From Gemmatimonadota bacterium (GTDB lineage Bacteria > Gemmatimonadota > Gemmatimonadetes > Gemmatimonadales > Gemmatimonadaceae), in the NCBI GenBank assembly GCA_031372565.1, contig JANMLN010000146.1, positions 1-24,752 of the forward strand: a stretch of DNA of 24,752 nt, given 5' to 3'. The position numbers were made by a program. Below, in pieces: positions 18,001-24,752 of this stretch (position 1 is its first letter; each line of letters opens with the position of its first letter).

Positions 18001-21000
18001 ACGGAGTGGGAGATGCTGACGATGATCGACGGGACCGCCGACCTCAAGGCCATCGCGAGCAACCTCGTGCGCAGCGAGTTCGACGTGGCGCGCATCGCCT
18101 ATGGCCTCGTGACCACGGGGGTCATCTCGTTGCGCATGCCGACGCGCGTGAGCGTGCGCGCGATGCTCCCCGTCGACGACGTCGCCCCGCACGTGGCGGC
18201 GGCGCAGGCCGCGCTCGACGCGGGCCAGCCCGAGGTCGCGCTCGTGTCCGCCCGGCACGCCGTGAACGCCGATCCCTCGAGCACCGAGGGGCGCATCGCC
18301 GTGGCGCGTGCCCTCGCGCGGCTTGGTCGCGCCGCCGAGGCCGTGGACGAGCTGCGCCGCGCTGCCCAGTCTGATCCGTCCAATCCCGACGTGTCGGTCC
18401 ATCTGGCCTTCGCGGCCGCGCGAAACGGCCAGATCTACGAGGCGATGGATCGGTGGTCTCGCTACCTGAGCGAGTCGCCAACGTCGCCGCACGCGGCTCG
18501 CGTACGCGCCGCGCTTGACGCGGCCCGCCAGCTCAACGTCCTGATCGAGGAGTTCGCGCATGTCGGATGACATCGCTCGTCTGAGCGAAGAGTTGGCGCG
18601 CGACCCGGCCAGTCTTGCCTTCCTGGAGCTCGCCGAAACGTTGCGCAAGCGTGGTGATCTCGAGGTCGCCGAGAAGGTGGCCGTTCGGGGGCTCGAGCGT
18701 CATCCGCATCTCGGCACCGGACACGACGTCCTCGCGCGCATCTACGCCGACACGGGGGTCTTCGAGAAGGCCTTCGACGAGTGGGGCATGGTGCTTCGGC
18801 TGAGTCCCGGCCATCCGGGTGCCCTCAAGGGGCTCGGCTTCGTCTGCTTTCATCAGGGACGCATGGCCGAAGCCGAGACGTGGCTGTCGCAGGCGGCGGA
18901 GGTCGATCCCGCCGACCAGCGGAACCTCGGCGCGCTGGCCTACGTCCGCCAGCAGCTCGCCGACTCGGAGCCAGCCGCGTCGACCGTTGCCGCTGCCGCG
19001 TCGCCATCGGGGCCGCCCGCGGCAGCGCACGATGCGCGGTCGCTCTTCCACGACATCCTGGGTGCGGAGCAGGGGATGGCGCTGCTGCTTGACGAACATG
19101 GACTCGTGCTCGCCGGGGGGCACGAGGTGGACGGGCGCGATGTGGGGCAAGAGGTCGGCGCCCAACTGGGCGGCGTCAGCGACGAGGCCGAGCGGGCCAT
19201 GCGCCACCTCGGCCTGGGTGGATGGACCTCGATCGTGTTCGAGACCTCGCAGGCGACGGTGGCGATGTCGCCCGGCCCCGAACGCTCGCTCATGCTCGTG
19301 AGCGCGGGAAAGGCGACGCCGGTCGGGTTCGTGCGCCGCATGCTCGAGCGTTCCCTGCAGCGCGCCACCACCTTCCTGGCGGGGAGCGCATGAAGAACTC
19401 GCCCTTCGCCGATCTGCTGGGCGCGCTCGTGCGACAGCGCGGTGTGACCGCGGCCATGGTCGTCTCGGAGGCGGACGGTCTCATCGTCGACGCCCAAGTC
19501 TCCATCGGCATGCGTGGGGAGGTCGTCGCGGCACTCTCGGCGTCGCTGTATCGGCGGGCGCGCCTCGCCGCGCAGGCCGCGGGCTATGGCGAGACGACCG
19601 TGCTCCAGCTGGAGGCGGAGCAGGGGCGCATCTGCGCGGTCGGCAAGAACGACCTGGTCCTGGTGGCCGTGACCGAACTGGGCTCGAACATCGGCCTCGT
19701 GCGCATGGAGATGCTCAAGGGACTCCAGGGTGGGGCATTGGGATGACCACTGTTGCCGTCACCGAAGCATGGGCCGAAGCGCCCCTCCGTCAGTTCGTGG
19801 AGGACGCACGGGTCGATCTGGCCCTGCTGCTGCATGCCAGCGGACAGGTGCTCGGGCAGGCGGGCTTCGAACGGCGCATGGACGTGATGACGGCGTGCGC
19901 CCTCGCCGCGGGCATCAACGCGACGGCAGCGGAACTCGGGCGCATGCTCGACGGGAAGCCGTTCGGCGCGCTGCACTATGCCGGGAAGTCCAAGCAGACC
20001 TTTCTCGCACTGGTCGACACCCGGCGCGGCGCATTCCTGCTGTTCTGCGTGTTCGACGAGCGCGCCTCGCTCGGGATCGTGCAGTTGTACTTCGGCGAGT
20101 TCCGCCATCGGCTCTCGGCGGCGGCGCCGGACGCAGAGGGACCCTCGACCCCGCTCAACGAGCACTTCGAGGGGGAACTCAACCGCAACCTTGCGGCCCT
20201 CTTCGGCCGAACCTGACGGAGCCCCAGCGTGTCCATCGTCAACTATGCTACGCGCGAGATCACGTGCAAGATCGTCTACTACGGGGCTGGTCGCTCCGGA
20301 AAGACGACCAACTTGCAGTACATCTATGCGCAGGTGCCGCCCGAGCGCAAAGGCAACATGGTCTCGTTGGCCACGCAAACCGATCGGACCCTCTTCTTCG
20401 ACTTCCTCCCGCTGGATCTCGGCAACATCTCGGGCTTCACCACGCGGTTCCAGCTGTACACGGTGCCGGGGCAGGTCTACTACCAGACGACGCGCAAGCT
20501 GGTGCTGCAGGGGGCCGACGGCGTGGTCTTCGTGGCCGACAGCCAGGCGCGCCAGTTGGCCGAGAATGTCGAGAGCCTGCAGGACTTGCACCTGAATCTG
20601 GCGGAGCACGGCATGGATGCCCGGCATGTGCCGCTCGTGATCCAGTACAACAAGCGCGACCTGCCGCCCGAGATGCTCACCGGGGTCGATGAGCTGCAGG
20701 AGGCCCTCAACTTCCGCGGCGTGCCAGATTTCCAGGCCGACGCATTGCATGGTCCCGGTGTCTTCGAGACCTTGCGGGGAATCTCCGAGCTCGTGTTGAA
20801 GAAGCTCTCTGCCCATCAGGCCGCGAAGTGACCACGGGTTCGCGCTACCGGTTCGACACGTACATCGTCGGCGCGGCCAATCGGCTCGCCATGGCCGCCG
20901 CGCGCGCGGTGGCGGAGGGGCCGGGCACGGTGTACAACCCGCTCTTCATCTACGGGCCGAGCGGGCTCGGGAAGACGCACCTGCTGGCCGCCGTCGGCAC

Positions 21001-24000: not shown

Positions 24001-24752
24001 CGCATGCGGCCGCGCTGCACAACAACCTCGCGGCCATCCTCGAGCGCCGGGGACAGGTCGAGGACGCCATGAAGGCCGCGGAGCGCGGGGTGGTGGAGGA
24101 TGCGTCGCTCCCGCAGCTGCACAAGAACGTCGGGGACCTGCAGTATCGTGCGGCACATTACGACGAGGCGCTCGAGAGCTTCCAGCGCGCGGTGAAGCTC
24201 GCCCCCGAGCTCGGCGCCGACGTCCACATGAAGCTGGGCAACATCCGCTTTCGGCGTCAGGAGACGGCCGAGGCGGTGCGCCACTGGGAACGCGCCCTGG
24301 AACTCGATCCGGCGAACGCGATCGTGCGCGCCAACCTCGACGCCGTGCGCCGCGGCGGATGACGATGAAGACCCCCGTGCGTCCGGATGCCGGCTTCGAG
24401 GCGCTCACGGGCAAGATCGCCCGCGAGAAGGGGTTTGCCTGCGCGTCGTACAAGCCGAGCTGCCTCATGCGCCGCGTGGCCGTGCGGATGCGCGCGCGCG
24501 CCGTGCACGACTACGCGGCGTATGCCCGGCTCCTCGACGCCGATCCGGTCGAGTACGAGCGACTGCTCGACGCGCTCACCATCAATGTCACGACGCTGCG
24601 GCGCAACGCGGACGCGTGGACGGCGCTCGAACGCGAGGCGCTGCCCCGGTTGCTCGATCACGTCCGCGGACCGGTGCGCGCGTGGAGCGCCGGCTGCTCG
24701 AGCGGCGAGGAGCCGTACACCGTGGCCATGGCGTTCGCGCGCGTGGCGGCCG

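Follow-up and report, generated by a model that had tools for sequence, protein, structure and literature searches.

DnaA-type modules have so far been described as nucleotide-driven, filament-forming switches for replication start and helicase loading. Proteins of this initiator/helicase-loader group of AAA+ ATPases form open spirals, not closed unfolding rings. Hda (HdaA), a DnaA-related protein that inactivates DnaA, is made of DnaA domain III only, as a single module without DNA-binding domains. In Myxococcus xanthus, a polarity module driven by the chemosensory system Frz comprises MglA, MglB and MglC; according to the excerpt of PMC4316618, mglA is there not near the genes of its partners, and the excerpts of PMC7519303 and PMC7668184 describe MglA as acting on type IV pili via a TPR protein. 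The cyanobacterial PatA-type proteins PixE and PixG carry a PATAN (DUF4388) domain and set pilus polarity, as stated in excerpted text, and PATAN domains of Synechocystis bind PilB1 and PilC (excerpt of bioRxiv 10.1101/2021.06.11.447907). The MshEN motif, for its part, consists of two tandem 24-residue stretches of the form RLGxx(L/V/I)(L/V/I)xxG(L/V/I)(L/V/I)xxxxLxxxLxxQ (PMC5013675).

The window considered here, i.e., the whole 24,752-nt stretch of DNA that was analysed, comes from a member of the Gemmatimonadota, a soil bacterium. It carries a tightly packed che/mgl/PATAN operon that incorporates a conserved DnaA-domain-III fold devoid of DNA-binding parts, as the initial annotation had reported. 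All genes lie on the forward (+) strand. The operon includes cheW (11207..11632; Pfam CheW E 1.6e-29), whose end overlaps by 4 nt the start of a cheY with a single receiver domain (11629..11991; Response_reg E 1.8e-30), followed by cheA (Hpt, P2, H-kinase_dim, HATPase_c and CheW domains in Pfam), for which the longest ORF spans 11868..14027 and the real start is probably near 11988, and by a cheC/cheX-type phosphatase gene (14038..14658; CheC E 6.9e-20, CheX E 1.8e-8). A 914-aa protein matching many TPR families (14674..17418) and a 383-aa PATAN (DUF4388) plus TPR protein (17419..18570; DUF4388 E 2.4e-33) come next; in the latter, residues 59-109 fit an MshE-type c-di-GMP motif (NF053729, 48.1 bits for a cut-off of 38). 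A 277-aa protein (18560..19393) combines Pfam TPR families with a weak Roadblock match (Robl_LC7 E 2.6e-4, 21.1 bits, below the cut-off of 23). Downstream of cheR (24359..24752; CheR_N and CheR), which is broken off by the contig end, loci of relatives continue with cheD and cheB, then with genes for an AAA_22 protein, two CheW, a TPR protein and a peptidase. No MCP receptor domain was found among the ORFs scanned in the window, which ends inside cheR.

Between these genes, the order Roadblock, 157-aa protein, MglA, twin DnaA-like ATPase and PATAN+TPR protein is as had been claimed, except that this conserved block was drawn too small: the operon exceeds five genes, and the 914-aa TPR protein is also kept at the same position in relatives. 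The 118-aa Roadblock/LC7 protein (19390..19746) matches Pfam Robl_LC7 (E 9.1e-6, 25.8 bits, in a scan of the longer ORF 19222-19746), with 7yh1_D as closest solved relative (E 0.011), and represents a second Roadblock paralogue beside MglB. The 157-aa product (19743..20216) encoded directly upstream of mglA, formerly listed as unknown, is an MglB homologue that matches M. xanthus MglB (6h5b_B, phmmer E 3.1e-7, residues 17-121), and a distant one, because it scores 20 bits with the NCBIfam MglB model for a cut-off of 200. The mglA gene itself (20229..20831) encodes a Ras-like polarity GTPase that matches M. xanthus MglA along its full length (6h17_A, E 1.6e-75, residues 2-194), with a TVPGQ motif whose threonine occupies the position noted in the excerpt of PMC3000849. 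The operon thus resembles the M. xanthus Frz/Mgl system by its MglA, its MglB homologue, a further Roadblock protein, and CheA, CheW, CheY and CheR. It differs from it in that all parts are gathered in one operon, together with PATAN+TPR proteins and a DnaA-like ATPase.

The twin ATPase (636 aa, 20828..22738) begins with a GTG codon, and this start shares 4 nt with the stop end of mglA. Its ORF, two Pfam Bac_DnaA matches (E 4.4e-104 for the whole protein) and fold matches agree with the earlier description of two complete DnaA-domain-III modules without domains I and IV, and the separate true dnaA was likewise recovered, as a full-length 476-aa gene on another contig. Module 1 spans residues 5-236 (20840..21535), and module 2 (residues 361-596, 21908..22615) is absent from short forms of the protein; both have the domain III fold including the lid. 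No Pfam match to DnaA_N or Bac_DnaA_C was obtained on the twin at E <= 0.01: module 1 already begins at residue 5, and past module 2 the chain has only a 40-residue tail. The closest solved relatives are DnaA domain III structures (8bv3, 8btg, 2z4r, 1l8q), notably 8bv3 with E 1e-57 over query residues 5-222. An AlphaFold2 model reached a mean pLDDT of 87.7 with a pTM of 0.48, at which the arrangement of the modules relative to each other is uncertain. In this model, residues 2-236 align with 8bv3_A (Z 31.7, rmsd 1.6 A, 235 residues) and residues 361-606 with 1l8q_A (Z 29.9).

Compared to DnaA, the twin has two modules in one chain and adds two elements restricted to the twin family. The first is a helical linker of about 100 residues (residues 253-355, 21584..21892) bearing conserved motifs, without significant match in the PDB or Pfam, and modelled as helices whose block-mean pLDDT is 86-94 beyond approximately residue 271 and lower in the part preceding it. 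The second is a conserved C-terminal tail (residues 617-636, 22676..22735) of pattern EK.VW.WP...R.IEE. Conservation was counted in 40 members of the family, the most distant at 30% identity, a range over which both linker and tail are conserved; both are also retained in one-module forms. In the tail, E618, K619 and W624 are each found in 38 members, E633 in 37, P625 in 36 and R630 in 34. The Walker A lysine, Walker B aspartate, box VII arginine and sensor II arginine are present in both modules of the window's protein. Across the family, module 1 keeps K49 (40/40), D106 (40/40) and the sensor II R205 (38/40), with its box VII arginine finger R156 in only 25 of 40, and module 2 keeps K409 and D465 (38/40 each), the sensor II R564 (36/40) and the box VII R515 (35/40), with a DnaA-type sensor I motif that is degenerate. 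Judged from these counts, the ATP sites are under selection in the family, and one of the two may bind nucleotide without hydrolysing it.

The folds closest to the twin modules are those of DnaA, Hda, DnaC and IstB, which places them in the initiator/helicase-loader group. Two-module AAA+ remodellers, p97 and Rix7, also appear among the fold matches and, since the same operon encodes three TPR-rich and two PATAN proteins, the twin could be imagined as a generic assembly or chaperone factor for these large scaffolds, devoid of any switch function. We regard this as improbable: p97 and Rix7 span both modules only at an rmsd of 20-25 A on a model with pTM 0.48, so that their arrangement does not appear to be that of the twin model, itself uncertain, and the modules belong to another AAA+ group.

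How close the protein is to replication factors is a more delicate issue. Module 1 and domain III of the DnaA encoded in this genome are 48% identical, the identity to B. subtilis DnaA domain III is 43%, and the NCBIfam DnaA model TIGR00362 gives 495 bits on the twin, above its cut-off of 343.9; such proteins are annotated as 'chromosomal replication initiator DnaA'. Like Hda, the twin is restricted to DnaA domain III and lacks DNA-binding domains, and Hda-type structures are matched (3bos Z 20.9, 3sc3 E 8.3e-10). However, it is far closer to DnaA than to Hda, the Hda models fall short (TIGR03420 165.7 bits for a cut-off of 194.8, NF051883 69.1 for 300 bits), and Hda has one module, without linker, tail or polarity-gene context. 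In a tree of 56 rows, the 15 domain III sequences of true DnaA, taken from four phyla, lay on one side and all 41 domain-III-only sequences opposite (support 93/83, 90% of bootstrap trees; root assumed), a split that has moderate support. The twin modules were separated there from true DnaA and placed together with the DnaA-III-only paralogues found in Fermentibacteria and Elusimicrobia, and the recruitment of a replication-initiator fold within this class, as initially suggested, is therefore probably not what happened. The Fermentibacteria modules clustered with each other (97/86), so the tandem duplication arose independently in the two phyla.

These paralogues are instructive by their company. 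Two Ca. Fermentibacteria genomes encode DnaA-III-only paralogues with an N-terminal MshEN domain, among them a 1993-aa twin whose linker is a coiled coil and whose C-terminus is acidic. In one of them (L048), the MshEN-DnaA-III paralogues lie between pilD and pilB-pilT-pilC-pilS, in the other (L049) the same order runs from pilD to the giant twin, where the contig ends, and a further relative (P0240) has its twin fused to a receiver domain. The MshEN-type element is thus fused to the ATPases in Fermentibacteria and resides in the neighbouring PATAN proteins in the window, where the twin gives no PF05157 (MshEN) match in its own chain and pilus genes are not nearby; residues 54-166 of the 383-aa PATAN protein match the N-terminus of the giant twin (tblastn, E 9e-6). 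Our literature search found no paper describing this twin DnaA-domain-III ATPase, and MshEN-DnaA-III fusions of type IV pilus clusters were not found in print either.

With these data at hand, two readings that would tie the protein to the chromosome can be weighed. The twin might be a regulator acting on the cell's own DnaA, in the manner of Hda or as a filament cap, and so link motility or c-di-GMP to initiation; the identity of module 1, the TIGR00362 score and the box VII arginines, that of module 2 being present in 35 of 40 members, speak for it. We give this reading little credence, given the Hda model score below cut-off, the separation from true DnaA on the tree, fusion partners in relatives that are MshEN and receiver domains, neighbours in relatives that are pilus, che and polarity genes with no replication gene seen, and the loss of the twin from many genomes that retain dnaA. 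Similarly, the module identity and arginine fingers could allow the protein to join or cap DnaA-ATP filaments as a DnaA mimic, through which chemosensory, MglA and c-di-GMP surface signals would gate chromosome replication; this variant is disfavoured, and of very low probability in our view, by the separate tree branch, the signalling-domain fusions and the pilus-gene neighbours of relatives. Taken together, the lack of domains I and IV, the presence of a dnaA elsewhere in the genome and the tree split indicate that the twin is most likely not replicative, and we propose to place it, as a member without replicative role, in a paralogous family of ATPases restricted to DnaA domain III.

The pilus clusters of Fermentibacteria also bring to mind DNA uptake, as DnaA domain III binds ssDNA and 3r8f, solved with AMPPCP and ssDNA, is among the fold matches of the twin; its modules might hence bind incoming ssDNA at a competence pilus. 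The position that we take to be the ssDNA-contact arginine of DnaA is occupied by R in five, G in three and S in two of 10 true DnaA of the phylum, and since it varies even there, a sequence test of this position is uninformative for the twin. The chemosensory and polarity context in Gemmatimonadota suits movement better than DNA uptake and no competence gene was seen in the annotated loci; we consider this reading very unlikely.

Within Gemmatimonadota, the twin or a short form of it was counted where the best E was <= 1e-62, following our own reading of the search rows. By family, it was present in 71/93 genomes of f1, 157/166 of f2, 5/5 of f3, 6/7 of f4, 2/2 of f5, 21/70 of f7 and 3/4 of f8, and in none of f6 (0/30) or f9 (0/4). 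It is thus frequent in the order to which the window belongs and patchily distributed across the rest of the class, so that the statement that it is kept in most genomes of the class is too strong. Its reported absence from other classes is right for the twin form (0/19 genomes), but a one-module relative with a similar C-terminal tail, followed by a TPR-only gene, occurs in f11 and f12. The gene is not the fixed operon member it was taken for either: G036 retains the entire operon without it, G072, G114 and G168 have reduced operons without it, and five genomes (G084, G283, G049, G306, G106) encode a one-module form, module 2 being absent in G049, G306, G106 and G084. The loci show clean loss or shortening, and the twin gene is evolutionarily dispensable.

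The downstream gene is its most faithful companion. It encodes a 540-aa PATAN (DUF4388) plus TPR protein (22740..24362; DUF4388 E 1.1e-40 plus TPR families) and starts 1 nt after the twin stop codon. Coordinates were compared in 112 genomes, and in all 112 the PATAN+TPR gene follows the twin gene on its strand at a distance of 2-200 nt. In f7, the twin is found in 21 of 22 genomes with the PATAN+TPR gene and in 0 of 48 without it; in f4, both occur in the identical six genomes; in f1, 17 genomes have the PATAN+TPR gene without detectable twin. Moreover, three f7 genomes carry the pair flanked by rluD and a peptidase gene, che and mgl being absent nearby and mglA elsewhere, e.g., at 1.03 Mb in G224, where the twin is at 4.54 Mb. 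The tightest partner of the twin is therefore the PATAN+TPR gene and not MglA, on which the initial annotation had laid the emphasis.

A role in the MglA cycle still deserves discussion, in which the twin would mainly serve MglA, be it as effector or as regulator, for instance as a sensor of nucleotide state or as an exchange/recycling factor, with PATAN+TPR secondary. The 4-nt overlap of the two genes would fit, as would the presence of mglA directly upstream of the twin in annotated f1, f2, f3, f4, f5 and f8 loci and a weak fold-based MglA-twin score of 0.47 carried over from the first annotation. Nevertheless, mglA is distant from the pair in the three f7 genomes, G036, G114 and G168 have mglA beside the PATAN+TPR gene without a twin, G061 has mglA with neither twin nor PATAN+TPR gene, and no MglA match was found by tblastn in the L048 pilus cluster of related ATPases. 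We consequently hold this role to be unlikely, if less so than those discussed above.

The PATAN+TPR protein is a predicted c-di-GMP sensor with a near-canonical tandem MshE-type motif (residues 57-110, 22908..23069; NF053729 52.6 bits for a cut-off of 38). It fits the 24-residue MshEN motif of PMC5013675 twice, deviating by a spacer of 6 rather than 5 and by two hydrophobic positions that are A and V/I, and its key residues are retained in 13-18 of 18 orthologues. The window's PATAN proteins share the PATAN domain with PixE and PixG and differ from them by the lack of a receiver domain, by a TPR domain after PATAN instead, and by this predicted c-di-GMP motif.

The absence of any DNA-reading part, the polarity and chemosensing operon, and an adjacent predicted c-di-GMP sensor make signalling to a surface-motility machine, not replication, the most likely task of the twin. 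We favour, with slightly better than even confidence, an ATP-dependent switch or scaffold that would work with the PATAN-TPR c-di-GMP sensor under Che and MglA/MglB control, in a polarity/surface-motility module. Each twin module would bind ATP. DnaA-type modules are expected to join head to tail, each ATP site being completed by the box VII arginine of the adjoining module, and the twin modules could therefore pair within or between chains, the nucleotide state setting conformation or oligomer. The linker and the tryptophan-rich acidic tail may dock on the PATAN+TPR partner, whose TPR domain would be the simplest site, and the PATAN domain would relay the state to polar machinery, the type IV pilus motor being the probable candidate, with timing and polarity provided by the upstream-encoded Che pathway and MglA/MglB. 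No pilus gene was found in the window or, at annotated Gemmatimonadota loci, in the roughly 10 kb on either side of the operon, and no member of the T2SSE or T2SSF families among the window's ORFs or in L016, so that the output could be another polar machine; the host genome gives 11 matches to the T2SSE family, of which five are full length.

Compared to DnaA, the gene context of these proteins is one of signalling and not of replication, and 'chromosomal replication initiator DnaA' is very likely a wrong name for them, one that can lead studies of origins and replication in these genomes astray. Here, a DnaA-type module without DNA-reading domains is tied to chemosensing, to a polarity GTPase of the Ras-like kind and to a predicted c-di-GMP sensor, and the related modules of a neighbouring phylum are tied to pilus motor genes. 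If the proposed function is true, the DnaA fold would also serve cell polarity and surface motility. One compact operon, moreover, allows Che sensing, MglA/MglB polarity, predicted c-di-GMP input and a putative ATP switch to be studied together, the corresponding parts being scattered in Myxococcus.

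A single, tightly packed row of genes runs on the plus strand from position 11207 to the contig end, most neighbours overlapping by 4 nt or lying 0-12 nt apart. According to Pfam, it encodes CheW (11207-11632), CheY (11629-11991), CheA (ending at 14027), CheC/X (14038-14658), a 914-aa TPR protein (TPR914, 14674-17418), a 383-aa PATAN and TPR protein (PATAN383, 17419-18570), a 277-aa TPR protein with a weak Roadblock match (18560-19393) and a 118-aa Roadblock protein (19390-19746). A 157-aa protein (19743-20216) and MglA (20229-20831) come next, followed by three further Pfam assignments, i.e., the ATPase with two DnaA-like modules, hereafter the twin (20828-22738), a 540-aa PATAN and TPR protein (PATAN540, 22740-24362) and a CheR starting at 24359 that is cut by the contig end. 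Upstream of this row lie ileS, a dksA-like gene and a rluD-like gene (5326-11169). The identity of MglA is unambiguous, as it can be aligned in full with M. xanthus MglA (E 1.6e-75). The 157-aa protein, left unnamed in the initial annotation, is by sequence an MglB homologue (M. xanthus MglB 6h5b_B, E 3.1e-7), encoded directly before mglA, the usual place of mglB; its single-sequence fold was unusable (pLDDT 38). The 118-aa gene is therefore a second Roadblock paralogue, whose best solved relative is 7yh1_D (E 0.011).

Beyond the contig end of our genome, the operon can be followed in another genome (G077, locus L016), where the row goes on with CheD, CheB, an AAA_22 ATPase, two CheW genes, a TPR gene and a peptidase gene. 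This AAA_22 P-loop protein of 266 aa (E 3.9e-24; L016:15161-15961, plus strand), encoded between cheB and the two cheW genes, is a second unexplained NTPase of the operon. Despite the presence of cheR, cheD and cheB, no methyl-accepting chemotaxis receptor domain was detected among the scanned ORFs of the window (11207-24752) and of L016.

The twin (636 aa) exhibits two Bac_DnaA matches in Pfam and none to DnaA_N or Bac_DnaA_C, and among solved structures the closest in sequence are those of DnaA domain III (8bv3, E 1e-57). For the AlphaFold2 model, based on 40 family members, the mean pLDDT was 87.7 and the pTM only 0.48. In this model, module 1 (residues 2-236) superimposes on domain III of B. 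subtilis DnaA (Z 31.7, rmsd 1.6 A) and module 2 (361-606) on A. aeolicus DnaA (Z 29.9), confident helices occupy the region between the modules (roughly residues 253-355), and a low-confidence stretch followed by a short terminal helix lies past module 2. Only with an rmsd above 20 A can both modules be aligned with two-ring AAA+ proteins, p97 among them. A full-length dnaA (476 aa) is present elsewhere in the genome and shares 48% identity with module 1. The relatives of the twin are named "chromosomal replication initiator protein DnaA" by the sources, and the twin itself scores 495 bits with the NCBIfam DnaA equivalog TIGR00362, above the cut-off of 343.9, because the scores of its two modules add up; the DnaA naming of the twin and its relatives is a systematic mis-annotation. 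A role in anti-phage defence was also considered and rejected, since what PADLOC detects in the twin is weak P-loop similarity only (best mad8, E 1.5e-10, residues 397-479), and no neighbouring gene is matched. The residues contacting single-stranded DNA were discarded as a discriminator: the contact position considered is not conserved in the true DnaA of Gemmatimonadota.

Among 1.84 billion representative proteins searched, about 60 full-length twin clusters were recovered, down to 30% identity; 40 of these were aligned. The Walker A lysine and the Walker B aspartate are each kept in 40/40 first modules and 38/40 second modules, the sensor II arginine in 38/40 and 36/40, and the box VII arginine in 25/40 and 35/40, respectively. 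Module 2 has a degenerate DnaA-type sensor I motif, and two family members have lost its Walker A motif. Conserved throughout and specific to the family are the linker motifs DEF..FLS, W...W..EG.RT..LE and FRDP, as well as the C-terminal tail EK.VW.WP...R.IEE. A profile of 16 linkers gave no significant match to PDB sequences (best E 0.19), Pfam returned only weak ABC_tran_CTD matches (6/16, best E 0.0059), and no usable match was found for residues 245-372 in the ESM Atlas, in which every full-length twin look-alike cluster is labelled Gemmatimonadota.

The distribution of the twin was established by searching 401 Gemmatimonadota genomes. In genomes with dnaA only, the best E lay between 1e-46 and about 1e-60; twins and short forms were counted at a best E <= 1e-62, rows being read by eye, and PATAN540 at E <= 1e-60. 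Among the families of the window's class (f1-f9), a twin or short form and PATAN540 were found, respectively, in 71 and 88 of 93 genomes in f1, 157 and 160 of 166 in f2, 5/5 and 5/5 in f3, 6/7 and 6/7 in f4, 2/2 and 2/2 in f5, 0/30 and 0/30 in f6, 21 and 22 of 70 in f7, 3/4 and 4/4 in f8, and 0/4 and 0/4 in f9, with neither reaching its threshold in any of the 19 genomes of other classes (f10-f12). These tallies take in four genomes flagged unpublished (G157 in f1, G057 and G182 in f2, G097 in f8), whose omission shifts any family count by at most 2; both modules were seen in f8 in G097 only. In f7 the twin is present in 21 of the 22 genomes with PATAN540 and in none of the 48 without it, and in f4 both are found in the same six genomes. 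PATAN540 occurs without a detectable twin in 17 genomes of f1, and three genomes of f2, two of them fragmented assemblies, encode a twin without PATAN540 at E <= 1e-60.

Coordinates compared by eye, unpublished genomes being left out, place the start of PATAN540 2-200 nt past the twin end and on the same strand in 112/112 genomes. The remainder of the operon is more variable, as seen by mapping the window's proteins by tblastn on 23 fetched loci. The full order, CheW/Y/A/C, TPR914, PATAN383, TPR-Roadblock, Roadblock, MglB, MglA, twin, PATAN540 and CheR, is found in f1 (G363, G077), f2 (G191, G165, G039), f3 (G069) and f4 (G027), the 118-aa Roadblock protein giving no tblastn match in G191. The Roadblock and MglB genes were not found by tblastn in two genomes of one genus (G103 and G067; L017, L018), in G036 the row is complete except for the twin, which is missing between mglA and PATAN540, and G072 retains CheW/Y/A/C, PATAN540 and CheR only. 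The row is reduced to rluD, mglA and PATAN540 in G114 and G168, with CheR next in G114, and to ileS, rluD, twin and PATAN540 in the f7 genomes G336, G116 and G224, which present no che or mgl genes nearby and encode mglA elsewhere; a peptidase gene follows PATAN540 in G224. The five-gene block Roadblock, 157-aa protein, MglA, twin and PATAN+TPR, described as fixed in the initial annotation, is therefore not so, and the constant unit is the twin with PATAN540, PATAN540 being the more constant of the two.

The genes ileS, dksA-like and rluD form a conserved anchor upstream of both full and reduced operons (window 5326-11169; L024-L026, L032, L034, L035), and the variants are therefore insertions or deletions at a single place in the chromosome. 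Single in-frame stop codons, either TGA or TAG, interrupt twin, PATAN+TPR or mglA matches (G278:C1:364098-365558; G336:C1:25645-27264 and 23730-25337; mglA of G116 and G336) and could reflect decaying genes or sequencing errors.

Some genomes encode a one-module gene instead of the twin, namely G049 and G306 (f5), G106 (f8), G084 and G283. Module 1, linker and tail are readable in the short forms of G049, G306, G106 and G084, so module 2 is optional, and the core includes the linker and the tail. One-module proteins are also present in other classes (349 aa in G003, f11; 346 aa in G006, f12), where they carry an acidic spacer and ends, ...EEWGNEEDRLVKEE and ...MEWDREEDRMLNEL, that resemble the twin tail. 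In both genomes the next gene is TPR-only and matches the TPR half of PATAN540, and G006 encodes a REC-GGDEF protein, a CheR-TPR protein and two CheW proteins at a distance of 3-7 kb.

Both PATAN proteins match NF053729, the NCBIfam "cyclic di-GMP-binding domain, MshE-related" (cut-off 38 bits), at residues 57-110 of PATAN540 (52.6 bits) and 59-109 of PATAN383 (48.1 bits). PATAN540 reads RLGDLLVKGGAIQQAQLDQAVAQQ, six residues, then RLGEILVDMGLLSRDQLHAHIRTQ, and so fits twice the MshEN motif RLGxx(L/V/I)(L/V/I)xxG(L/V/I)(L/V/I)xxxxLxxxLxxQ, as published (PMC5013675). Depending on the position, 13-18 of 18 orthologues retain the key Arg, Leu, Gly and Gln, and PATAN540 is predicted to be a c-di-GMP receptor. 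In G103 and G067, which lack MglB, the second motif is degenerate as well; in this genus the loss of the Roadblock and MglB genes and the degeneration of the motif go together.

A further link to MshEN came from odd-length matches of the representative-protein search, scanned with Pfam. P0178 (1876 aa) and P0189 (1990 aa) combine MshEN, DnaA-III, about 1200 residues of charged coiled coil, a second DnaA-III and an acidic end, and P0249 consists of MshEN and DnaA-III. A metagenome protein, P0240 (738 aa), is an f7-type twin with a C-terminal response-regulator receiver domain (E 1.5e-11), which points to direct phosphorylation control in some lineages. A genome scan located P0189 in a Candidatus Fermentibacteria MAG, in the order pilD, MshEN-DnaA-III (983 aa), MshEN (436 aa), MshEN-DnaA-III (409 aa), giant twin, TonB_C gene, pilB, unknown gene, pilT, pilC, pilS and a second pilT-like gene; a second Fermentibacteria MAG matches this arrangement from pilD up to the giant twin, where its contig ends. 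These two genomes (G401, G402; L048, L049) present 12 and 11 DnaA-III matches, one per genome also covering domain IV, and the remainder, domain-III-only ORFs of about 390-2000 aa, represent a large expansion of the paralogue family. Residues 54-166 of PATAN383 match the MshEN end of the giant twin (tblastn, E 9e-6). An MshEN-type element and a DnaA-III ATPase are thus joined in one protein in Fermentibacteria and encoded by adjacent genes in Gemmatimonadota. Two Elusimicrobia MAGs also encode a DnaA-III-only paralogue (G404:C250:3288-3932 and G405:C133:3469-4074, ORFs of 537 and 602 aa), which in G405 shares its contig with pilB-pilT-pilC, about 22 kb apart.

A tree of 56 domain III sequences (IQ-TREE, LG+G4), rooted by assumption between true DnaA and the rest, separates the 15 true DnaA of Gemmatimonadota, Fermentibacteria, Elusimicrobia and Polyangiaceae from all 41 domain-III-only sequences (93/83; 90% of bootstrap trees). 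It leaves out 27 of the 40 aligned twins as well as the short forms of G049, G306, G106, G084 and G283; the placement of these short forms comes from an earlier quick tree, where their single modules fall with module 1. Module 2 forms a single clade (98/99) within an unresolved module 1 set, so the duplication took place within the Gemmatimonadota line. Both modules of the Fermentibacteria twins group together (97/86), and their duplication is independent of the Gemmatimonadota one. The long branches, i.e., the f11 and f12 single modules and the Elusimicrobia paralogue, were not reliably placed.

Several published observations connect these partners with pili and polarity. In Synechocystis, PilB1 and PilC are bound by PATAN domains, which determine the polarity of the pili (bioRxiv 10.1101/2021.06.11.447907), mglA genes sometimes lie near PATAN genes (PMC4316618), and MglA, together with SgmX, a TPR protein, acts on type IV pili (PMC7519303 and PMC7668184). 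The window's genome encodes 11 T2SSE-family matches, none near the operon, so candidate target machines exist. The gene-context analysis in the PATAN paper of Makarova et al. (2006) may bear on the PATAN-MglB link. Word searches of the literature, supplements excluded, brought up no paper that describes a DnaA-like ATPase in connection with MglA, PATAN, MshEN or pilus genes. New here are the MglB assignment of the 157-aa protein, the twin and PATAN540 as a constant pair, module 2 as the optional part of the twin, the conserved twin tail and its echo in other classes, and the links by sequence, fusion and tree between the Gemmatimonadota twin and the fusions encoded in pilus clusters.
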